Source: a phage. From it: a DNA stretch of 64,000 nt. A program made the translations under genes and the position numbers. Below are positions 22,362-33,408 of this stretch, one piece after another. The stretch lies in the NCBI GenBank assembly GCA_032986305.1, contig GCA_032986305.1_3672.1, one strand, 5' to 3'. The notes beneath the pieces are model-generated. The model searched no databases and was not told the origin of the DNA. It was given only the letters and a program-made list of their open reading frames with translations. The first letter of the stretch is position 1. Every line of letters starts with the position of its first letter.

Positions 22362-23918
22362 TTAATTTTCCATGTTGGATATGGAATTATCTCTGGTTGA
22401 TGACATCTTAGAAGTGCCGTTGCCAGTGGATCCTGCAGCCATTCCATCGCCAGCCCTACTGATGTCCTGGCCCAAGAGCTTCATTAGCTCTTCCTGATCC
22501 ATGTCCTCGTCAAATCTTTCATCAAACCCACCTACTTCAAGAATCTTATTAATTACTGCAGGAGTTTTTGGCAAGTAACCTACAGCACCGATCCTCTGGA
22601 CAAACTTGGAGAAGCTCTCCATGTCCACCTCTTCAATCAGGCCAGGTTTCAGTTTAGGCATATCATCATCTTCAAGGATGATACCATTCAATGCCAGAAG
22701 CTGTGGAATAAGATCTTTATTGAAGGCCTCAGTGATAATATCTATATCACGCTGAACAAAATGACCATGGATAGACTGTTTTGACTCAGACAGAGAGAAG
22801 GATCCGACGTTATCGTTACCGAGGTTAATAAAGCCAGCACCGAAACGGTCAAGAATCGCCTTCTTACGGGCATCAATCAAATCTTTAGTTGAATACTGCT
22901 TGCCCATACCGTCAACCCCCTTCAGGGTCATGGAGTAAAGCTCTTTACCAGACTTATCTCTATCAGACGGAAGTATAAAGAAACTTTGCTCCCCACTATG
23001 GGCGTTTGCTGCGTCAAGCATAAGATCTGCAACCATTCTCCCTTCCATTGAATTCGGGTCAATACTGGCCTTGTTCAAAATATTGGAAGGAATTTTCAGC
23101 TCAAGCACACCACCAAGGTCTTTGGAACAGCCAACAACCTCAAGGTTTTCAATCAAAACTTTCTCACGGAAAGATCTGTAGCAACCTATCATCGGTGACA
23201 CACCTGCAGGGTTAGATTCTGTTCCTGACAGAGTCATGAGCATAAGCTTTTTAGCAGGGATGAAAATTTCAGGCTCATTAAAGCCTTTTGAAGGCATTGC
23301 AGCAAGAGGTCCAGCCCAGCGTGCATTCTGAGTGTTTAGAAATGCATTAGGTGACTGATAAATACCTGTCAGTGTTCTACTATTCTTGTCAAAGACAAAC
23401 GGCTCTGATCTGGACAGACTGGCCTGAGGTCGGAATGCAATTTTATCAATAAGGAGCATCCCGGCATATTTACCTTCTTTCTCTCTGCGGTATACTTTCT
23501 CAAACAGTGAAAAACCATACTCGTTAAAGGTAGCTGCGCTTCTTGCAATATCCCGAAGGGTTTGTTGGTTTGCTAAATTACGCAAAGAATACTCTATAAG
23601 CTCGGCAGCTTTCTTAGAGTCTTCACTTTTAACATTATAAAGGATCTTAAAATCATTGAATGCTTTCGTGATGAAAACATATTTTGTATCTAAGGCAGTA
23701 GCAACTGTGGAATCACATTTCATAGTCTCCACTGTGGCAATCAGCTGAGGCCAACGCAATTCCTCAACCATCATAGATTGCGATTCTGCCATGATTTGGG
23801 AAAGTGCGCCAGAACCGATCTCACTCATACGAACATTATGAGTTGGTGCGCCTGCGTTCCCAGATTTATTCACAGTTTTGGCTGTGGCGTTGTGTTTCCT
23901 GCGGTTCTTTTTGGACAC
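22362..23918 (-). CDS. portal protein (518 aa; start GTG or downstream ATG)
   Basis: size and position between terminase and scaffold; annotated start is GTG. Confidence 0.6.
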   Translation of the reverse strand: MSKKNRRKHNATAKTVNKSGNAGAPTHNVRMSEIGSGALSQIMAESQSMMVEELRWPQLIATVETMKCDSTVATALDTKYVFITKAFNDFKILYNVKSEDSKKAAELIEYSLRNLANQQTLRDIARSAATFNEYGFSLFEKVYRREKEGKYAGMLLIDKIAFRPQASLSRSEPFVFDKNSRTLTGIYQSPNAFLNTQNARWAGPLAAMPSKGFNEPEIFIPAKKLMLMTLSGTESNPAGVSPMIGCYRSFREKVLIENLEVVGCSKDLGGVLELKIPSNILNKASIDPNSMEGRMVADLMLDAANAHSGEQSFFILPSDRDKSGKELYSMTLKGVDGMGKQYSTKDLIDARKKAILDRFGAGFINLGNDNVGSFSLSESKQSIHGHFVQRDIDIITEAFNKDLIPQLLALNGIILEDDDMPKLKPGLIEEVDMESFSKFVQRIGAVGYLPKTPAVINKILEVGGFDERFDEDMDQEELMKLLGQDISRAGDGMAAGSTGNGTSKMSSTRDNSISNMEN

Positions 23919-23937
23919 AAGCTTTACCCCTCAAAAC

Positions 23938-23970
23938 AGTATAACAAAATAGCCCTCGTGTTAGAGGGCT
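23938..23970 (-). terminator. terminator-like hairpin between terminase and portal genes
   Basis: AGCCCTC..GAGGGCT stem followed by AUUUUGUUAU on minus strand. Confidence 0.3.
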
Positions 23971-24020
23971 AGTATCTCCGATTACTCTATTCTACCACAT
24001 CTAATTAAGATTGGCAACAC

Positions 24021-24827
24021 TTAGATAAAACGCTTGAACATAGAAGGTGATGAGATTGATGGAATCACACAAGGAAGTGCTACCTCCTCTTTCTCCAGGA
24101 AATTAATTGCAGAAGCTACACAGTCAGCCCAGTCGTCTTTTCTGTTAAATGTTGATCTTTCCCCGTTGAATTTTTCAAGTTCAGTCAGAAATGCTTCCAG
24201 AGTATCAGGATGGAAACTGGATTTTACAATCCTAACCATTCCTTGTTGGGCAAGATTGGCAAAAGGTGAGAACCTTGTCAGTTTAGATTTGTTGGAAGGC
24301 ATTGGGTCTTCTTCAACCCTAAACCCTTCGGCGAGCAAGGATCTGGAGGATGTTAAGAACTCACTCTTACCTGCCTGACCGGGGTCCACAGAGAATACGA
24401 TTATACAATCATCACCATCAAACTGCGCCTGTTTCCTGATGATCACATCTCGTTCACCAGCCTTTTTACAGAACTTGCCTTCCAGACCTGTGGAATACCT
24501 CCCGTCATCCACGTTTTCAGGACAATAATCCCCTGACAGGTAATAAAAGCCGTCGCTATCTTTACTTACCTTAACACTGGCGGTAAAGTCAGGAAATTTA
24601 TTACCGGAAGTTCTGTCGGTTCCTGCCTTATCCCATGCCCTGCAAGATACTGATCCAAGGGGTACTCTATCGGCATCACGAAGGAAAGATCTTTGAAAAT
24701 AGTTTGCACCCTCAGGCTTTGCAAACCAGTTGCCATGAAGAAGCTGGGCTTTTTCAAGCTCGGGCAGACCTTCAAGAAAAGCAAGGTATTCTGGGTTGTC
24801 TCTCAAGCAGACAGGATTATCGAATCC
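24021..24827 (-). CDS. terminase large subunit, exon 2 (nuclease domain); 5' boundary approximate
   Basis: 261-aa ORF; continues the reading frame of exon 1 after removal of the intervening intron. Confidence 0.65.
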   Translation of the reverse strand, partial: GFDNPVCLRDNPEYLAFLEGLPELEKAQLLHGNWFAKPEGANYFQRSFLRDADRVPLGSVSCRAWDKAGTDRTSGNKFPDFTASVKVSKDSDGFYYLSGDYCPENVDDGRYSTGLEGKFCKKAGERDVIIRKQAQFDGDDCIIVFSVDPGQAGKSEFLTSSRSLLAEGFRVEEDPMPSNKSKLTRFSPFANLAQQGMVRIVKSSFHPDTLEAFLTELEKFNGERSTFNRKDDWADCVASAINFLEKEEVALPCVIPSISSPSMFKRFI

Positions 24828-25804
24828 TTATATTCAAAGGTGGTCGCAACACCACCTTCCGCACCTTTACGTGCTGCTGCATGTTACCATGCAGAGTAGA
24901 CTATATCACCACCCATTTCAGGGTGCTTCGCTTTTCGAGCGCCATAAGCTTGCGCCCTACTCCCTCTCGGGATAGTCGTTGAACTACATTACCAATCGTA
25001 ATTGTTTGAAATATAGGTGTAAGTCTTACGGTCTTTTATTCCTTTAACAACACTAAAACTTACTCCCCACTTCTTAGCTATTTTATTTACACACAAGACC
25101 TTATCACTAAGATCCTCGCAGATACCTATTATCTTGTGCTCACTTATCCGATTAGAGGTTGGCACTTTTCTAAAGTTAAACTCTTTAGAAATATCTGGGT
25201 ATACTGAGCCATTCTTTATACCACTTACAAGTGGTTGATTGACACCAAACATTTCACAAATGTCTTTTACCCTTGCGCCTTGCTCTAACAGCCTACATAT
25301 TTCAAGAGCAGTGGCATCATCCAGGGACCTGTATTTATTGACATAGTCCTTTTTAAGTCCCATTTCATGAGCGTGATGTGTGTTTTCCTCAGGCGTTGTC
25401 CACTCAAGGTTCCATGCGGCGTTATTCAACTTATTACCATCTAGGTGGTTTACTTGAGTTTTCACGCTGGGATTGTCATTATCAACAAAAGTCATAGCAA
25501 TCACTCTGTGAACGAGCACTTGGAACTTTTTACCGTCCTCGCACAAAGTTACCATAGCATAGCCAGTCTTTTTCTGCACATTAGGATGGAGGAATTTATT
25601 AGAATACAGACTGTAAATTCTGCCATCGTATGTAGCACAATAATGATTGTAGCCTAAAAAGCCTAAATTTTTCATTTCAAACATCTCCCTACTACAGGTT
25701 CGGAAGGGTAATTATAGCTGCTGATTGTCCGTTTAGCAATCGGATTTCCCAGCAATTAACGAAGTTATTCGACGTGCATTTCTGCACGAAGCCACTATCA
25801 TTTA
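24828..25804 (-). mobile_element. group I intron in terminase large subunit gene, carrying an HNH homing endonuclease ORF (boundaries +/- ~20 nt)
   Basis: R-like GTTCAACGACTATC (reverse of 24962-24975) and S-like GATATAGTCT (reverse of 24897-24906) core elements; 3' core nearly identical to the nrdD intron at 53500-53545; interrupts a single terminase reading frame. Confidence 0.65.
24989..25675 (-). CDS. HNH homing endonuclease (intron-encoded)
   Basis: motif ..VHRVIAMTFVDNDNPSVKTQVNHLDGNKLNNAAWNLEW.. (HNH_3-type); ORF lies inside the intron; stop 12 nt before the R element. Confidence 0.7.
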   Translation of the reverse strand: MKNLGFLGYNHYCATYDGRIYSLYSNKFLHPNVQKKTGYAMVTLCEDGKKFQVLVHRVIAMTFVDNDNPSVKTQVNHLDGNKLNNAAWNLEWTTPEENTHHAHEMGLKKDYVNKYRSLDDATALEICRLLEQGARVKDICEMFGVNQPLVSGIKNGSVYPDISKEFNFRKVPTSNRISEHKIIGICEDLSDKVLCVNKIAKKWGVSFSVVKGIKDRKTYTYISNNYDW

Positions 25805-26547
25805 ATGGTTGCGCCTATAAACGAGAATGACAACGGTCTTGGCTTGATCTCCACACCCAGTCCGTTAACCGTGGTGTATTTCTCTATCAACTCTTCTTTA
25901 GAGTCTCCCCAAATAAATTCACCGTCGCGTCGGATAAAATATCTTTTCTTACCGCATTTCTCCGGATCTGGATACCCTTCATCGTCCAACCACCATCTAA
26001 CCAGTTTGGCAAGCATGTGTTCTGAATCGGGGTTACAGCTGATAACCATTCTTGATGGATACTTTGACTGAGATCGCAGACGAGACATCAGATAGTCTAT
26101 CTGCTCCCATTCGAACTGCGTTCCCTCATCGAAGCAAACCATGGTGTACTCAAGCCCTTGATGGTTAAGCTTATCTTGTACATACTCCATGTGGCAGTAT
26201 TTTACAACAGCTCCCTTTTTGCTCCTATCCCACTTGCCAGTGTTCGGATCAAACCGTGGAAAAATGAACTTATGATCCTTCTCTCTGAACTTTGGCTTAA
26301 TGTTTTCAGGCAGATCACTATAAATAGCTACTGCTTTAGGCCATAGTCCACCCTCACCTTCCAACTGTGGGGTTGTTCTTCGGAACATAACCACAGAGCT
26401 GTGGGGGTCATCAATAATTTTAAGCGGCATCAACTGCAAGAGGAACGACTTGCCAGACCCTGCGGCACCGCCGATTACCAAAATATCTGCATCATTTTCG
26501 AGGATCATCTTCTGCTTTTCAGAACACGGTCCGTAAATCTTAGACAT
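25805..26547 (-). CDS. terminase large subunit, exon 1 (ATPase domain); 3' boundary approximate
   Basis: Walker A GGAAGSGKS near the N-terminus; ORF ends at a stop lying just inside the intron. Confidence 0.7.
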
Positions 26548-26834
26548 TAACCTCTCTCCTTTGGAAAAAGTGTTCTAATATAGTCTTGCAAAATGATCAA
26601 TTTAGCTCTATCATTGCTACAAGACAGATTATTATCCCTCATAATGCCAGAGTTCACTGCATCTGGCGCACCTTTCTTCAAAGGCATAGCTTTAGCAGGT
26701 GGTTTCATGGCACCTTCCGGGGGCTTAACAATCAACCTTCCTACATCTGGAGGGTCAATCTTGTATTCTTTCTCAACACTGGTTGCACACCCACATAATA
26801 ACAAGCACGCAATAAACAGTGTAGCAACTCTCAT
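26547..26834 (-). CDS. o-spanin-like outer-membrane lipoprotein
   Basis: signal peptide with L-C-G-C lipobox, Pro-rich periplasmic part, 95 aa; overlaps upstream gene by 4 nt. Confidence 0.45.
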   Translation of the reverse strand: MRVATLFIACLLLCGCATSVEKEYKIDPPDVGRLIVKPPEGAMKPPAKAMPLKKGAPDAVNSGIMRDNNLSCSNDRAKLIILQDYIRTLFPKERG

Positions 26835-27894: not shown

Positions 27895-27993
27895 AGGTGC
27901 TAGGCGGTGGAATCGAACCACCTATGTATTCAACGACTACCTCGTCTATTTTCAGGATTAAAAATCCTCGCCCTTGCCAAAGGGCTTACCTAG
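27895..27993 (-). tRNA. atypical tRNA-like gene, possibly tRNA-Lys (anticodon UUU) with ~30-nt extra region; may be a pseudo-tRNA
   Basis: perfect 7-bp acceptor pairing GCTAGGT/GCCTAGC, canonical T-arm GGTGG-TTCGATT-CCACC, D-stem GCCC/GGGC, 4-bp anticodon stem with loop TTTTTAA, but ~99 nt long and no CCA. Confidence 0.35.
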
Positions 27994-28091
27994 CTCAGTA
28001 TGTTGACCATGTTGCTAGTCGGCGATGACGACTGTAACATTTGATAATCCGGTTCTGCTTCCGGCTTTCGCTTAATTACAAGGTCAACAAT

Positions 28092-28182
28092 GTGGCGGAG
28101 AGTAATGGAATCGAACCATCATCGAGTCATCCTCAATGGGACGGTTTTCAAGACCGCTTGAGCACCATTGCTCCCTACCCTC
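28092..28182 (-). tRNA. tRNA-Ser (anticodon UGA), long variable arm
   Basis: acceptor GGAGGGT/ACTCTCC, anticodon loop CTTGAAA, extended variable arm, discriminator G, CCA encoded. Confidence 0.7.
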
Positions 28183-28189
28183 CTTTATA

Positions 28190-28387: not shown

Positions 28388-28462
28388 TTGGCACCCCGTA
28401 CTGGACTCGAACCAGTGTCAACGGCTTAGAAGGCCGCTGCTTTATCCACTAAGCTAACAGGG
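28388..28462 (-). tRNA. tRNA-Arg (anticodon UCU)
   Basis: anticodon stem-loop GCGGC-CTTCTAA-GCCGT, T-arm ACTGG-TTCGAGT-CCAGT, CCA encoded. Confidence 0.7.
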
Positions 28463-28559
28463 CACTGGGTGGCTTTCTTTTACACCTTAGCCGCCAGAAA
28501 AGGTGGGAGACCATGTTTACAATATTACACTGTTAAGCAAAGTTTGTCAAGAAAATATT

Positions 28560-28898
28560 TTAGCTATTGCTAACAGGCTGTATTTCTGTAGTAAATGGCA
28601 TAAAAGGTGCTGGTTTTTCAGCCTCTTCCACTACCATCTCTTCCTCTTCACCAAACATCTCATCATATTCTTCCTGCATTCGGTCTGCCTTATCAAGAAC
28701 ATACTCTGCAATGCTTTGACGAATATTTTGTTTGGTTTTCGGGTCCAACATCAGCTCTCTTAAAACTTTGTGAGCTTCTGGAACCATCGCTATAAAAGAT
28801 TCCTTCATATCAAGGATGTTCTTCTCTAGCTGAATGGCGTTGGACTCCTCTTTCAGAGGTCTGCCTCTACGGCGACGCTTTTTAGTTGTATCCGCCAT
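28560..28898 (-). CDS. hypothetical small basic/acidic protein with AT-hook-like KRRRRGRP motif
   Basis: start moved to MADTTKK.. with GGAGGA RBS; acidic C-terminal tail. Confidence 0.4.
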   Translation of the reverse strand: MADTTKKRRRRGRPLKEESNAIQLEKNILDMKESFIAMVPEAHKVLRELMLDPKTKQNIRQSIAEYVLDKADRMQEEYDEMFGEEEEMVVEEAEKPAPFMPFTTEIQPVSNS

Positions 28899-28904
28899 GT
28901 TTCC

Positions 28905-29200
28905 TCCATTATCACGTGATAGGTGGATTTTATCATAGCAAATACTGATTGTCAAGTTCGCCGCAGGGTGGTATTCCCTGCGACTTGTCCAGCGTCCTGG
29001 ACCAGCAAGACCCAACAAGTGGGTTACCAGAGGCCTATTACCCGCGCTTCGGCTCGACCTTGTTACAGGTTGGCTGGGGTCACATCGTCATGTGCTGGCT
29101 GCCCCTACCATTTTAAGTGTGGTGCACTATCAAGCCCTCTAAGGGGAACTCAGCCTTCTCCGAACCCTGTTTCAAAGCATCCAGAGATAAAGCCATCAAA
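28905..29200. ncRNA. GC-rich non-coding island, candidate structured RNA (strand and function unknown)
   Basis: GC content visibly above flanking DNA; hairpins CGCAGGG..CCCTGCG and GTCCAG-CGTC-CTGGAC; only an Arg-rich implausible ORF spans it. Confidence 0.25.
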
Positions 29201-29244
29201 TTCATCTTTAAATTGGATATTCATCATGATACACGAAAACAACC

Positions 29245-29487
29245 TCATTGTAAAGCACAAATAAATAAAACATACTTAATTTGTTTGTTATCAGGCTCAG
29301 GGTAGAAGTAGAAGATCTTGCTATCACCGATCTGAACACCACCATCCCAACAACATAGCCCATAACCTGTATTCATACAAGCTAAGTCGTTGGCAAAATC
29401 TATTGCATCATCCAGTGCACGAAATTCACCTTCATCTTCTAAATAATCCTCATTCATGGAACGAAAAACGAGCTTAACCTTAAACAT
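29245..29487 (-). CDS. hypothetical protein (80 aa)
   Basis: ORF only. Confidence 0.3.
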   Translation of the reverse strand: MFKVKLVFRSMNEDYLEDEGEFRALDDAIDFANDLACMNTGYGLCCWDGGVQIGDSKIFYFYPEPDNKQIKYVLFICALQ

Positions 29488-29563
29488 AGCATTACCTGTA
29501 GACCTCGTAAGTTAAAATTGCATCACATCATATTGCAGATCTTATCAGGTAACACTATTTTTG

Positions 29564-29773
29564 TCAACAGATTCCGGCCTTATCCTTCCTGTCTGCGTAT
29601 TCTTTAATCGCAACCTCATCTGCATTAGTGACCAGGTCTTCAAAGTAACTCTCAAGCTCCTCGTCAATGTCAGGAGACCAGCCCTTTTTCCTGTCAGTGT
29701 GAATCGCAGACTTGTTAAACTTAGTACAGTTCTTTGCTACCGGATTGTTCATTAAGCACCCCTCAGCGTTCAT
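29564..29773 (-). CDS. hypothetical protein (69 aa)
   Basis: ORF only. Confidence 0.3.
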   Translation of the reverse strand: MNAEGCLMNNPVAKNCTKFNKSAIHTDRKKGWSPDIDEELESYFEDLVTNADEVAIKEYADRKDKAGIC

Positions 29774-30341
29774 AGTAAATCTTATTTAACATTACCTCAT
29801 CCTTTGCAGAAAGGATATCTAGATATGCATCACCGAATCTACCTGCAACAACCTCTGCATGATACATCACTTCGTTAATATCGTCAAGAGGGATAACTGG
29901 ATGACCGTATCTCTCTGAGTATTGTCTCAGAGTGCGATGTAGGGAGTCATCATCATAGGCAGACTTTTTAATATCGCAAACACGACGAATAGCCTTGATG
30001 TCGAAAAACCCTGTACGATACCAACCAAGAAAAAGGTTTCGTGCAGTGTCAACATCTACATCAATACCATTAAGAACCTTATCTACAAGATAGCTGTCAT
30101 CCTTTGGACCAGCTTCCTTAGTGCGAATGTAGTTGCCATCTTTTCCAGGTGACATCTCCTTCTCATCACCAACCTGCATGCCATCATTTGGCGGTGTTAG
30201 CCACTTATCCGGATGCTTACGATCACGAGCGTTAGAATGATTACGCTGGAAACCAGGCTTCCACTTGAAAGTTTTCTCCATCTGTTCTTCATTCTGATAA
30301 CGTTTTGCAATCTTTTCACGGTCATCTTTGCGTGAACCCAT
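29763..30341 (-). CDS. hypothetical protein (192 aa)
   Basis: ORF with GAGGAGG RBS. Confidence 0.4.
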   Translation of the reverse strand: MGSRKDDREKIAKRYQNEEQMEKTFKWKPGFQRNHSNARDRKHPDKWLTPPNDGMQVGDEKEMSPGKDGNYIRTKEAGPKDDSYLVDKVLNGIDVDVDTARNLFLGWYRTGFFDIKAIRRVCDIKKSAYDDDSLHRTLRQYSERYGHPVIPLDDINEVMYHAEVVAGRFGDAYLDILSAKDEVMLNKIYYER

Positions 30342-30454
30342 AGCTGCCTCCTCTTCAAGTTATAGAAAAACTCACTGTATCACTTTGTAACGAGCTTTTC
30401 TATCAAACTGGTGCGATTGCATTACCTGGTATAGTTTATATAGCTGTGGAGCGA

Positions 30455-30710
30455 TTTAGGGGCCTTCTTGTCAGTTTCCACACATAAACTTCATCCAAGC
30501 TCGCGCGGGAGGCTCTCAACCGACTCCTTACGGCGCTGGCAAGCTTTCGTCGGTGGTCCACATCAGTGCTCGGCCTTTGGCCTGCGCTATCGCTTCGCTC
30601 CCACACATGTTAACAGACCTGCATGTATGCACTTCTGTTATTGTGTGCACCAAGGAGGCCCGGCATCTCGCCCCTCGTAGGCGAGTGCCAATGAAGGGCC
30701 GACACTACCT
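30455..30710. ncRNA. GC-rich non-coding island, candidate structured RNA (strand and function unknown)
   Basis: ~250 bp GC-rich block between AT-rich DNA; hairpins CTCGCC..GGCGAG and GGCC-TTT-GGCC; GGGGCCTTC at one end nearly complementary to GAAGGGCC at the other; only a low-complexity ORF. Confidence 0.25.
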
Positions 30711-30843
30711 ATAGTAAGTAATAATTTTAAAACATGGTACTTAGGATCTAGTATATTCTACATAAGTTAAGTATATGTACTTAGTACCATAAGTACTAGA
30801 TCTTTTATTTTTTATTATTTAGTTATTTTAGTTATATTCTTTA

Positions 30844-30927
30844 TGTGTCCGTATCACGGACAGTTAGTGTCCGTATTACGGACAGATGTGTCCGCGTGAC
30901 GGACAGTAGTGTCCGTATCACGGACAG
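30844..30927. repeat. four tandem ~21-22 bp palindromic repeats GTGTCCGT-N3-5-ACGGACAG (operator or iteron array)
   Basis: copies centred at about 30854, 30876, 30898, 30918; each is a 7-bp inverted repeat; 20-22 bp periodicity; AT-rich palindrome-rich DNA lies next to it at 30720-30840. Confidence 0.6.
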
Positions 30928-31001
30928 TTACTGACCTCTGTTCCAGAGCGAACATAAAACATACGAATCCTTATAGTACAGATATTTAAGTTTTTACTGG
31001 T

Positions 31002-31352
31002 CTAACCAGTTGTTGACATTCGAATAACCTCTTCTGGTGGCAAAACTTTGGAAAATGTACATCTTTTACCTCTCCCTTGTGTGGATATTTCAACCACTCC
31101 TGCACATTCTAAAGTTTTAACACACGCTGCTGCTTTTGTTTTCTTTATCCCAACATCTGCTGCAATTTTCCTTGTGCTGGGTGTGAAGCGTGAATTTCCT
31201 CCAAGCTTATACCAGTTGTGCAGGTAGCAGTATACGATCTTGTCATATAAGTCAAGAACAACAACCTCCCCAGTTGTGTCATTCAAAACTTTTGACATAG
31301 ACAGTATTTCAAGGGGGACTTTAAGATATAGCAGCTTATCCCCATCTTTCAT
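31002..31352 (-). CDS. small helix-turn-helix-like DNA-binding protein (tentative)
   Basis: 116 aa; segment ..STRKIAADVGIKKTKAAACVKTLECAGVVEI.. resembles an HTH; gene ends ~75 bp before the palindromic repeat array. Confidence 0.35.
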   Translation of the reverse strand: MKDGDKLLYLKVPLEILSMSKVLNDTTGEVVVLDLYDKIVYCYLHNWYKLGGNSRFTPSTRKIAADVGIKKTKAAACVKTLECAGVVEISTQGRGKRCTFSKVLPPEEVIRMSTTG

Positions 31353-31399
31353 ATCTCCTGATTCTCCTTGTGTGGCAATTTTCTTTAAAATAGCAGGGA

Positions 31400-31954
31400 T
31401 TACTCCCCGCTGTCAATAGCAAGACTCATTGCAATACGGTATGCCTCTTCTAATGGTAAGAGTCTCCCCCACACATCCCAACCGACATCAAACTGCCTGC
31501 CAAACAACTGCTGTGTGGTTCCGTGAGCATGACCGAACAGTTGGACTGATCCGTGAGGCTTTCTGTTCCACTTTGCAAACTGGTAATGGCTCATACAGAT
31601 CAAATTCTTGTTGTGGCGAAGCTCGTAATAATCTACAACCTCATGACCGAACTCTTTCATAATTCTGACAGTCGTCCTTGTGTCATGGTTACCACGAACA
31701 AGAATAATATGTCCGTTCAACATATTTAGAACATCTGGGAGCAATTTGTTGATATTCTTATCATTAGTGCACGCAATATCTCCCAAGTGAAACACAGTGT
31801 CTGCAGGTGACACAACAGAGTTCCACTTGGTGATGATTCCCGCATTCATACTGTCAAGATTGTGATCATACTGAGATCTGTGTTTTTGACATGAATCGAA
31901 CTCCATGACCCGCTGGTGGAGAAAGTGTGTGTCGCTTGTTACAAAGTATTTCAT
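31400..31954 (-). CDS. calcineurin-like metallophosphoesterase (start at internal MKYFVTSDTHF)
   Basis: motifs D-x-H (SDTHF), GDIA, GNHD, GHAH in canonical order. Confidence 0.6.
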   Translation of the reverse strand: MKYFVTSDTHFLHQRVMEFDSCQKHRSQYDHNLDSMNAGIITKWNSVVSPADTVFHLGDIACTNDKNINKLLPDVLNMLNGHIILVRGNHDTRTTVRIMKEFGHEVVDYYELRHNKNLICMSHYQFAKWNRKPHGSVQLFGHAHGTTQQLFGRQFDVGWDVWGRLLPLEEAYRIAMSLAIDSGE

Positions 31955-31961
31955 ACATTCC

Positions 31962-32372
31962 TCATTTAAGTTTAATGCAGTTTTTAAGCTGGCGTTCCAT
32001 ACGATCCACAACCCTGTCTGGAACATCATGAATGCTTTTATTACCATGGCGGTTTTCAACCACGATCACGGTATAACTATACCCATGACTGATCGCCATG
32101 TCAATATATTCTTGCACATATTTTTCTTTTGTAAACGTATTACTTACCACGATACGGTCGTATCCCATACGCATCATATCTTCTACGTTATCTTTGCACC
32201 ATTTTGCTGCAAGTGTTACTTTACTTGCATCCCAGTTATAATTTCCATCATCGTCGTACCAGAACATGTCGTTCTCAAAATGTGGATACAGACCGTCTAA
32301 AGATAGCGCATTTGCCAGTGTTGATTTGCCAGACCCTGGCAGACCACGCACGATATATAGCATTTTAGACAT
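31962..32372 (-). CDS. P-loop polynucleotide kinase-like protein (T4 Pnk kinase-domain-like)
   Basis: Walker A ..IVRGLPGSGKST.. near N-terminus; start MSKML with GGAGGA RBS; adjacent to phosphatase and divergent from RNA ligase. Confidence 0.55.
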   Translation of the reverse strand: MSKMLYIVRGLPGSGKSTLANALSLDGLYPHFENDMFWYDDDGNYNWDASKVTLAAKWCKDNVEDMMRMGYDRIVVSNTFTKEKYVQEYIDMAISHGYSYTVIVVENRHGNKSIHDVPDRVVDRMERQLKNCIKLK

Positions 32373-32400
32373 AGTAATCCTCCGTTTTAATTTCAACGAT

Positions 32401-32429
32401 AGTATACCTGACTGTTTTGTTAATTTCAA
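32401..32429 (-). promoter_or_regulatory. sigma70-like promoter for kinase-phosphatase operon
   Basis: minus strand TTGAAA-N17-TATACT. Confidence 0.45.
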
Positions 32430-32472: not shown

Positions 32473-33408
32473 ATGACAAATGAGGAACGTATGATGAAGT
32501 ATTTTAATGCAGATGACCTAGTAGACAAAGGTCTTGTAACCAGTCGGTATTATCCAGATCTTGGATTAAAGATCTATAAATATGCCAGAAAAGTATTCTA
32601 CAACAATCTGTGGCATTTGTCTCCGCGTTTACTGGAGTGCCGAGGTATTGTTGTTGGCAATGAGGGGAATGTTGTGGCATGGCCTTTCACAAAAGTATTC
32701 AACTTAGGAGAAAACTCCACCAACCTACCGGACAGTAAACTTGTTACTGCGGTAGAGAAAAAGAACGGATTCCTTGGTGTGGTATCATCTCATAAAGGTG
32801 AACTATTGTTCTCAACAACCGGATCTCTTGATTCTCCATATTGTAACCTCACAAAGGAAACCATCCAAGAGCAATGTGGTAATTTAGATCTTATCAAGAA
32901 GGTTATGGGCAATGAAAACATGACATTCATGTTTGAAATTTGTCACCCTTCAGATCCGCATATTGTTCAGGAAGATCATGGCGCATATTTGATAGGTTGC
33001 AGATATAATGATTCTGGAATAATGCTGCCAGAAGCAGCTTTAGATGGGATTGCCAAATACCTTGGCGCAAAACGTCCTCACACTGTGCGTGAAATTCCGT
33101 TCAGCTATGCAAAAGAATTGGCTGCAGAAACAAGAGGTGAAGGGTATATGATTCGTAAGCCTTACTACCCTTATGATCTGCAGCTGAAGATCAAGTCTCC
33201 ATACTATCTGGCACGGAAGGCCGTAATGAGGGGTAAAGCTTGGAAGATTTGGGATGATGATATCTTTAAACGTGTTGACGAAGAGTTTTACGGCATGGTA
33301 AACTTCATTCGTAGCAATTACACAGAAGATGTGTGGAACTGCCTACTGGAGCAGGAACGCAGGGAGATACTCGACCACTATTTCCACAACGAGGACTATA
33401 TGCAATGA
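32473..33408 (+). CDS. RNA ligase, T4 Rnl1-like (alternative start at 32491)
   Basis: recalled T4 Rnl1 motifs: ECRGI, FNLGEN, nucleotidyltransferase motif I KKNG (K-x-[DN]-G), EGYMIRK..LKIKS. Confidence 0.6.
   Translation: MTNEERMMKYFNADDLVDKGLVTSRYYPDLGLKIYKYARKVFYNNLWHLSPRLLECRGIVVGNEGNVVAWPFTKVFNLGENSTNLPDSKLVTAVEKKNGFLGVVSSHKGELLFSTTGSLDSPYCNLTKETIQEQCGNLDLIKKVMGNENMTFMFEICHPSDPHIVQEDHGAYLIGCRYNDSGIMLPEAALDGIAKYLGAKRPHTVREIPFSYAKELAAETRGEGYMIRKPYYPYDLQLKIKSPYYLARKAVMRGKAWKIWDDDIFKRVDEEFYGMVNFIRSNYTEDVWNCLLEQERREILDHYFHNEDYMQ

Follow-up and report, generated by a model that had tools for sequence, protein, structure and literature searches.

What are four tandem palindromes doing between the end of a small DNA-binding-protein gene and the least stable DNA of a phage genome? 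The locus lies in a 64,000-nucleotide stretch of phage DNA (GenBank assembly GCA_032986305.1, contig GCA_032986305.1_3672.1), hereafter the window, which comes from an rV5-like myovirus of Escherichia coli, genus Vequintavirus. More than 100 phage records match its region 30300-31400 at 98-99.6% identity. An earlier reading made without database searches (the sequence-only reading) had offered either an iteron-type replication origin with an unwinding element or a multi-operator switch. Of these we favour the origin, probably one served by a stand-alone origin-binding domain without a C-terminal effector, and we put the probability of this reading at roughly 0.65. It is favoured by the homology of the neighbouring gene to the origin-binding domain of PLE RepA (PDB 4RO3), by an AT tract that is the genome-wide minimum of duplex stability, and by arrays of the same motif inside O-like initiator genes of unrelated phages. 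The operator switch is less favoured, as no convincing promoter overlaps or adjoins the repeats. Read in the direction of minus-strand transcription, the locus runs as follows.

31387-31416, minus strand: sigma-70-type promoter P76, directly upstream of the winged-helix gene (TTGACA-18-TATTTT with a TG, 10 of 12 matches; annotated in rV5 at 65693-65722)
31002-31352, minus strand: winged-helix gene of 116 aa (rV5 ORF79 / gp075), encoding the putative origin-binding protein, which is homologous to the N-terminal domain of PLE RepA but stands alone (Pfam DUF6945 / HTH_36)
30928-31001: spacer of 74 bp from stop codon to repeats, poorly conserved
30845-30927: four tandem iterons, G-TGTCCG-N5-CGGACA-G, with a period of 21-22 bp, about two helical turns
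30715-30844: AT-rich tract of ~130 bp, GC about 0.20, the proposed DNA unwinding element
30436-30714: conserved GC-rich block of ~280 bp with no convincing open reading frame (ORF), adjoining the AT tract
29763-30341: ORF, the last element of the layout in this direction

The array holds four perfect TGTCCG-N5-CGGACA sites (30846-30862, 30868-30884, 30889-30905 and 30910-30926), each forming a 17-bp palindromic core within the full unit G-TGTCCG-N5-CGGACA-G. The sequence-only reading had described four tandem palindromic repeats with a period of 20-22 bp, and these are indeed present at 30846-30926, with start-to-start spacings of 22, 21 and 21 bp. Its formula, GTGTCCGT-N-ACGGACAG, holds for copies 1, 2 and 4, which have 7-bp arms (TGTCCGT / ACGGACA), and is slightly too strict for copy 3, which has 6-bp arms around the centre CGTGA. 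Iterons are at least two direct repeats of ~17-22 bp in helical phase (PMC4980987); the four units at these spacings have that form. At up to two mismatches the window contains seven sites, compared with 1.08 ± 1.06 in shuffled sequence, where seven was reached in none of 100 shuffles, and each of the three matches beyond the array has two mismatches. The array is also the sole tandem repeat in the window with a TRF score of at least 40. In the complete rV5 genome (137,947 bp, assembled for this count from three sequence stretches), sites with at most one mismatch are confined to this array, and a single motif locus fits one origin, not a regulon. Two GenBank records mark a 'repeat_region' here and nothing more. 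It has no match in E. coli genomes (blastn), and the one plasmid record that it matches, CP057073.1 in PLSDB, is itself an rV5-like genome. That record, described as a 'non-mobilizable plasmid' of 137,565 bp from an E. coli culture, has the array at 102619-102719 with 98% identity; to judge from its rV5-like size it is probably a phage assembled along with its host, possibly in a carrier state.

The AT tract (GC 0.19-0.20) abuts the array. We profiled duplex stability with nearest-neighbour energies across the window and the rV5 genome, and the tract is the least stable duplex of both at 60, 100 and 130 bp. At 130 bp it reaches -134 kcal/mol, compared with a mean of -173.5 (standard deviation 6.6), a distance of ~6 standard deviations, and the runner-up has -146. 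The AT-rich tract described earlier is thus real, though it spans ~130 bp and not the 110 bp given then. Of the further palindromes reported in it, both GTACTTAGTAC and AGATCT are there, together with an inverted pair (30734-44 / 30780-90), GATC at 30745 and 30799, and TAGTTAT direct repeats; a GATC scan of the locus gave background levels. The unwinding element of an iteron origin is AT-rich DNA adjoining the iterons (PMC4980987), and here the adjoining DNA has 20% GC and is the computed stability minimum. Scanned at standard and relaxed settings, neither the repeats nor the AT tract showed a convincing promoter or terminator. A string resembling a T7 promoter at 30700-30722 (minus strand) was dismissed, both because it is not conserved in phage Aya and because rV5 is not known to have an RNA polymerase of the T7 type.

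A small helix-turn-helix (HTH)-like gene had been reported to end ~75 bp from the repeats. It is the 116-aa ORF at 31002-31352, whose stop codon lies 74 bp from the last repeat, so that a winged-helix initiator encoded in cis, as in iteron origins (PMC4980987), has a counterpart here. In the original rV5 annotation the gene is a 'putative transcriptional regulator' with similarity to the GntR N-terminus. RefSeq and Pharokka now label it 'replication initiation protein' because the protein belongs to phrog_12838, which bears that name; it also weakly matches phrog_270, 428 and 8102. Phage_rep_O is absent from its Pfam matches, and these four PHROG matches are to 'replication initiation protein', not to O-like families. 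The family is very isolated. Single-protein searches (a word-indexed protein search and an exhaustive HMMER search) returned one 50%-identity cluster among 1.84 billion representatives, plus weak winged-helix matches. Searches for related loci gave no confirmed relatives, either in viral contigs (alignment A2) or in genome contigs (P0011), and P0011 had no match in plasmids (tblastn). Among the relatives that were scored, P0025 (71% identical) passes the Pfam cut-offs for both DUF6945 (30.5 bits) and HTH_36, and the DUF6945 scores of Pseudomonas phage phiPMW gp115 and of the N-terminal domain of ICP1 Odn (gp88) are 42.6 and 119.9 bits.

The protein resembles the PLE RepA domain in both sequence and predicted fold. 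An AlphaFold model (predicted local distance difference test score, pLDDT, 80.5) predicts an extended winged helix whose core is preceded by a helix and a beta-hairpin and followed by a further helix (H14-18, E21-23, E30-32, H35-49, H60-67, H71-83, E87-92, E97-103, H106-112). The DnaD N-terminal domain aligns with this model over 99 residues and RepA_N over 90, and Odn is among its viral structural neighbours. In the Vibrio cholerae satellite PLE the replication initiator is RepA, and 4RO3 is its N-terminal domain, a dimer of the RepA_N / DnaD type; RepA binds a semi-palindromic iteron repeat in electrophoretic mobility shift assays and is required for replication that depends on the origin (PMC7145576). 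The likeness of the rV5 protein to 4RO3 is significant in sequence as well as in structure (E 1.4e-6 for the single rV5 sequence, 1.8e-15 for the family profile), and to RepA_N it shows no significant similarity in sequence (E about 1.2). The N-terminal domain of Odn matches 4RO3 at E 2.9e-22 and is 42% identical to that of PLE1 RepA; Odn needs the iterons in order to cut the PLE origin (PMC8263062). Odn and the rV5 family match each other with 93% probability (E 3.1e-7) over 83 columns that include the hairpin motif N..TGEV. Together, the 4RO3 and Odn matches identify DUF6945 as an origin-binding domain of the PLE RepA type and the rV5 protein as a stand-alone copy of it. The latter ends at residue 116 without a C-terminal effector domain and is a DNA-binding domain alone.

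Two further observations concern this family. A metagenomic protein of 228 aa (P0013) has an N-terminal GIY-YIG nuclease and a C-terminal DUF6945, the domain kinds of Odn in reverse order, and may be another origin-directed nuclease. We also considered ICP1 ORF88 as a marker of ICP1's own origin and rejected it. The gene lies at about 48 kb and the published coverage peak near 60 kb (possibly in the coordinates of another isolate), and its product is the anti-satellite nuclease Odn.

In an alignment of seven Vequintavirus genomes, 6% of columns vary in the repeats and 9% in the AT tract, compared with 13-16% in the flanking genes, 32% in the post-stop spacer and 40% in the divergent promoter region; of the non-coding DNA at the locus, the repeats and the AT tract are conserved best. 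The winged-helix gene is intact in 119 phage records, all of them Vequintavirus, at 88.8-100% identity. In a metagenomic relative (L010) with a protein 71% identical, the spacer is wholly different and the repeats are kept, reading CTGTCCG-TCACA-CGGACAG and then CTGTC at the contig end. Because the half-sites are kept there and the centre is changed, selection acts on the half-sites and not on the central 5 bp, as would be predicted if a protein recognizes two half-sites one helical turn apart. Copy 3 has a T-to-C change (TGCCCG) in three of five genomes, which breaks the pairing without a compensating change.

We searched 596 Gb of public contigs for two adjacent copies of the motif and found them in seventeen viral and thirty-seven bacterial contigs, where about 0.02 such pairs would be expected by chance (an estimate from the 24 specified bases). 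These contigs share no DNA-level likeness with the window and range in GC from 0.40 to 0.73. Their arrays have three to seven copies with a period of 20-25 bp, occur in both orientations relative to the gene, and in most contigs lie within a long open frame that begins some 90-200 codons earlier. In lambda and SPP1 the origin has a corresponding place. Eight of the thirteen array-spanning ORFs tested match PHROG replication-initiator families (E down to 1.4e-26), with the labels 'replication initiation O-like', 'DnaD-like helicase loader' and 'replisome organizer'.

L038: phrog_270 (E 2.4e-16) and 'replication initiation O-like' (E 3e-14)
L042: 'DnaD-like helicase loader' (E 1.4e-26) and 'replisome organizer' (E 8.7e-26)
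L037, L014, L018, L021, L026, L019: initiator-family matches, E 1e-14 to 1e-4

Three array-bearing ORFs have an N-terminal HTH_36 above the Pfam threshold. The array-bearing initiators match phrog_270, 428 and 8102, the same families that the rV5 protein matches weakly, and their N-terminal domains match the rV5 family with 94.5% probability (E 7.4e-8). In these genes the array starts just behind the winged-helix domain. Ten of the genes were examined for base composition, and in most of them the DNA that follows the array is clearly AT-richer than the genome (GC 0.24 vs 0.46 in L037; 0.38-0.50 vs 0.65 in L021), encoding a linker rich in K, N and E. The rV5 locus has the same order of winged-helix coding region, iterons and AT-rich DNA, with the difference that its frame stops before the iterons. 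These comparisons suggest that TGTCCG-N5-CGGACA may be an iteron code common to a subfamily of HTH_36 initiators. The hosts of the arrays are diverse (L014-L067), with Treponema, Kiritimatiellae, Parachlamydiaceae, Myxococcales, Burkholderiales and Streptomyces among them.

Small proteins of the rV5 kind also have repeats of their own elsewhere. In L013, which encodes a 113-aa protein, three tandem repeats with a GTAAA-N-TTTAC core and a period of 23-24 bp follow the stop codon directly and are followed by a ~70-bp AT-rich tract and then a long ORF-free region. In phiPMW (L009), three GGACA-AAA-TGTCC repeats lie just upstream of the gene for gp115 (136 aa). Judged by sequence, a small DUF6945 protein beside its own tandem palindromes is a recurring arrangement in large virulent phages. 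Purine repeats of the AGATAGA type make up most of the AT-rich tracts in phiPMW (L009 2414-2460) and L013 (5413-5475), and the tract after the arrays in L021 and L026 resembles them (GTAGATAAATCTAAGAAGAT); such repeats may be a common feature of the unwinding element.

How would an origin of this kind work? The 116-aa protein would be made early from its own sigma-70 promoter, from which the timing is deduced. A dimer would then occupy each of the four 17-bp palindromes, as the homology to the PLE RepA N-terminal domain and the geometry suggest; that such genes recur with repeats beside them points the same way. Since half-sites are about one helical turn apart and sites about two turns, all dimers would lie on one face of the DNA. 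The nucleoprotein array would strain the adjacent 130-bp AT tract, whose computed instability is consistent with opening, and the phage's own T7-type helicase-primase, perhaps aided by the superfamily 1B (SF1B; PIF1/RecD-like) helicase, would load on the opened DNA. Bidirectional replication would then start, by analogy with PLE/ICP1, lambda and SPP1. Computed here are the sites, their uniqueness, phasing and conservation, the instability of the AT tract and the protein homology. The replication proteins reported for rV5 are a T7-type polymerase, a gp4d-type helicase-primase and a PIF1/RecD-like helicase (PMC3606486). The polymerase of ICP1 is of the Pol I type and its helicase-primase of the gp4d type, and PLE depends in addition on the ICP1 SF1B helicase (PMC7145576), so rV5 and ICP1 have the same three types of replication protein that PLE exploits. 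With a protein that, unlike all its characterized relatives, is a DNA-binding domain alone, recruitment of the helicase would have to come from another protein, from transcription through the origin or from DNA structure alone.

Several points weigh against an origin here. Recruitment is the weak point of the mechanism: a C-terminal domain is present in lambda O, in PLE RepA, in the RepA_N plasmid initiators and in the array-bearing O-like proteins, and a tblastn search of rV5 for the C-terminal domain of O-like initiators found nothing significant (all E > 0.1). The window protein falls just under both Pfam cut-offs, with 27.1 bits for DUF6945 (cut-off 28) and 24.5 for HTH_36 (cut-off 25). 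Since winged-helix cores often cross-match in profile comparisons, the 94.5% match to the array-bearing initiators is supportive only. Four of the thirteen array-spanning ORFs have no initiator match, and open frames in high-GC DNA may be spurious. The phiPMW repeats lie in a divergent promoter region and would also suit autoregulation. The region 30300-31050 contains one DnaA-box-like and one IHF-like site, each with one mismatch, which is background; such sites are common but optional at iteron-type theta origins. No corresponding module was found at the syntenic position in the sister genera Seunavirus and Phapecoctavirus, and a module confined to one genus cannot be the ancestral origin of the subfamily. 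Phages of the T7 and T4 types can initiate from transcripts or by recombination, without a dedicated initiator. Finally, a 2.6-kb ORF-free region between convergent transcription units of rV5, outside the window (NC_011041 104013-106618; L008 4013-6618), contains the genome's second least stable duplex (around 105963) and weak 15-16-bp tandem repeats, and is a candidate for an alternative or second origin.

The rival that deserves most attention treats the winged-helix protein as a transcription factor and the four palindromes as its operators. Bound dimers would block read-through from the early promoter into tRNA genes and structural genes downstream, or the AT tract would hold an unrecognized promoter under their control, one driving the GC-rich block or ORF 29763-30341. 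The original annotation, with its likeness to GntR, points this way, as do half-sites one helical turn apart, which are typical of operator palindromes, and the position of the related phiPMW repeats between divergent promoters. Initiators often repress transcription as well. The array lies in the path of any transcript that starts at the 31416-31387 promoter, and no terminator-like site was found between P76 and the repeats (terminator scan), so transcripts from P76 would probably cross both the repeats and the AT tract. The repeats, however, are on the 3' side of the gene, and some 500 bp separate them from the next ORF downstream. Near them, sigma-70 matches score at best 9 of 12 with 15- or 19-bp spacers, approximately background for such AT-rich DNA (the scans covered promoters of the sigma-70 type), and none of the thirty-three promoters annotated by the rV5 authors is here. 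An operator array would also leave unexplained why its lone target in 138 kb sits beside the least stable duplex. Given in addition that the same arrays lie within coding sequences of replication initiators elsewhere and that the nearest characterized homologue is an origin-binding domain, we regard an operator array as unlikely.

The other explanations are less probable still. The repeats and the AT-rich, possibly bent DNA could be a pac site recognized by a small terminase-like protein for headful packaging. Some pac sites do combine repeated boxes with bent AT-rich DNA, a small terminase is unannotated in the rV5 stretches examined, and GenBank records of the genus begin at many different positions; this would fit circular permutation, which makes headful packaging and a pac site likely. 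That it is this site is very improbable, because the large terminase gene is about 4.3 kb away (window 23721-26566, by offset) with lysis genes and tRNAs between, the fold and homologues of the protein are of the RepA N-terminal domain / DnaD type and not of the small-terminase type, and the arrays elsewhere are in initiator genes. We have equally little confidence that the locus is a decaying remnant, that is, a truncated O-like initiator gene whose internal origin has left functionless repeats. The order of its parts matches that of intact O-like genes, the C-terminal domain is missing and the module is limited to one genus, yet conservation is higher in the repeats and AT tract than in the neighbouring genes, the adjoining spacer drifts freely, and the gene is intact in 119 of 119 records. 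Least probable of all is an element acting in RNA, with the palindromes as tandem transcript hairpins for processing, stability or attenuation. The array is probably transcribed from the upstream promoter and folds at -48.2 kcal/mol (z = -6.5), but a high fold energy is automatic for any palindrome. No U-tract follows the array on either strand (the sequence there is A-rich or mixed), the scan called no intrinsic terminator at it, and the change in copy 3 breaks pairing uncompensated. The occurrence of the motif in both orientations relative to the gene in other phages points instead to recognition of double-stranded DNA.

A broader proposal can be made, which we hold only tentatively and think more doubtful than not. 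The rV5-like phages and other large virulent phages, such as phiPMW and the L013 lineage, would initiate with an effector-less RepA-like N-terminal domain of 113-136 aa that only marks and distorts an array beside an extreme AT tract. The helicase-primase would be loaded via the SF1B helicase or transcription, not through protein recruitment. The PLE replicon would be a captured and extended copy of such a module, and TGTCCG-N5-CGGACA a recognition code common to winged-helix initiators in phages of very different hosts, with GC from 0.41 to 0.70.

The GC-rich block (30436-30714) may or may not belong to the proposed origin; it may be a flanking GC-rich element or a non-coding RNA. It has a GC of 0.53-0.64, is single copy and is limited to the genus. 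Its fold z-scores are -2.0 (minus strand) and -2.9 (plus strand), and rV5 has an 18-nt deletion in it that removes one hairpin arm. Rfam searches at the gathering threshold (window) and at an E-value threshold (28400-31100) returned only tRNAs and a chance match to rli43 (22.8 bits, gathering score 100). A second GC-rich block at 28920-29244 ends at the annotated promoter P74 and likewise has no convincing ORF and no Rfam family. Both blocks are conserved, reach a GC of up to 0.64 in a genome of 43% GC and have numerous short, stable hairpins, GCGAAGC among them. They may be single-strand initiation signals or non-coding RNAs. In L012 and L013, too, the related winged-helix genes have ORF-free, hairpin-rich regions of this kind on their flanks.

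On its other side the winged-helix gene adjoins an RNA-repair set, and a tRNA cluster is also adjacent. The RNA-repair genes are these.

31400-32059: metallophosphoesterase
31962-32429: AAA_33 kinase
32473-33408: RnlA-type RNA ligase

In phiPMW (L009) and L011 the distant homologues lie in the same neighbourhood, which may simply reflect a shared organization of the early region. A divergent switch lies at about 32440, 1.5 kb from the locus, and corresponds to the rV5 skew change at 66.7 kb. The rV5 authors ascribed this change to transcription, and their skew analysis gave no origin (PMC3606486). Inside the tRNA cluster, ARAGORN calls a 99-nt tRNA-like gene with a 4-base anticodon (atcc) at 27896-27994 on the minus strand. 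It is 'tRNA-OTHER' in phage naam and absent from other annotations, and neither it nor the ARAGORN tRNA-Ser at 28093-28183 is among the tRNA matches reaching the Rfam gathering score. Eighteen GenBank records within MG065646-MG065690 that are named 'Campylobacter phage', most of them listing Campylobacter jejuni as host, match the rV5-like region, the best at about 99.5% identity. Probably these host labels are wrong or the stocks were contaminated.

Some of this is already known. Iteron origins with winged-helix initiators are classic (PMC4980987), and the gene has its homology-based label. We found no published description of this origin, and nothing relevant on iterons of Vequintavirinae, DUF6945, TGTCCG iterons or Vequintavirus transcriptomes. 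An initiator reduced to its DNA-binding domain, the homology to the PLE RepA N-terminal domain, and one iteron motif recurring inside O-like initiator genes of unrelated phages all appear to be new. Phages of the rV5 type are widely isolated and are used in therapy and biocontrol work, and no one has located their origin; the skew analysis in the genome paper did not succeed (PMC3606486). With the origin and its binding protein defined, origin-plasmid assays would become possible, as would phages that are engineered or replicate conditionally, and there would be a way to study how a T7-type replisome loads without T7 RNA polymerase. The homology to PLE RepA ties a satellite replicon to modules native to lytic phages and bears on how RepA_N-type proteins recruit the phage replisome, a question raised for PLE (PMC7145576). 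The recurring motif in O-like genes provides a simple sequence signature for finding the origins of phages and prophages.

Among known systems, lambda has a comparable layout. Its origin lies inside gene O and has four iterons of roughly 19 bp that show internal dyad symmetry and to which the N-terminal winged helix of O binds as a dimer, with AT-rich DNA on one side; the C-terminal domain of O recruits P-DnaB. The order of a DNA-binding-domain coding region, iterons and AT-rich DNA is common to lambda and rV5. The lambda iterons are intragenic, however, whereas those of rV5 begin 74 bp past a stop codon and come without an O-type C-terminal domain, and rV5, unlike lambda, brings its own helicase-primase. 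SPP1 offers a likeness of architecture, with no sequence similarity claimed. Its oriL, inside gene 38, has direct repeats together with an AT-rich unwinding element, and its gp38, like the protein proposed here, is a phage origin-binding protein with one origin adjoining or within its gene (PMC6316719). SPP1 differs in having two origins (oriL and oriR) and in needing gp39, a separate loader, as well as gp40, a helicase of the DnaB type; no loader resembling gp39 was identified in rV5.

The RepA_N plasmid initiators (pSK41, pTZ2162; PDB 4PTA, 5KBJ) and the iteron plasmids share with rV5 their tandem 17-22-bp iterons in helical phase (PMC4980987), and F and pPS10 have four of them, as rV5 does. 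In iteron plasmids the initiator binds cooperatively and melts the adjacent unwinding element (PMC4980987), steps for which a counterpart is proposed in rV5. A second domain is present in plasmid Rep proteins, which usually also depend on DnaA boxes; rV5 has neither. In addition, classical plasmid iterons are non-palindromic and bound by monomers, whereas the rV5 repeats are palindromic.

The system closest by homology is PLE. Its origin also consists of tandem semi-palindromic iterons in non-coding DNA (PMC7145576, PMC8263062), and repA with this non-coding region suffices for replication, solely during ICP1 infection (PMC7145576). A Pol I-type polymerase, a gp4d-type helicase-primase and an SF1B helicase serve PLE/ICP1, in agreement with the proteins reported for rV5. 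PLE has three ~30-bp iterons converging on a poly-A tract, and rV5 has four units of 21-22 bp with a different sequence. RepA possesses a C-terminal domain, in contrast to the 116-aa rV5 protein, which corresponds to its N-terminal domain alone. Finally, PLE is a satellite, whereas the rV5 module belongs to the lytic phage itself.

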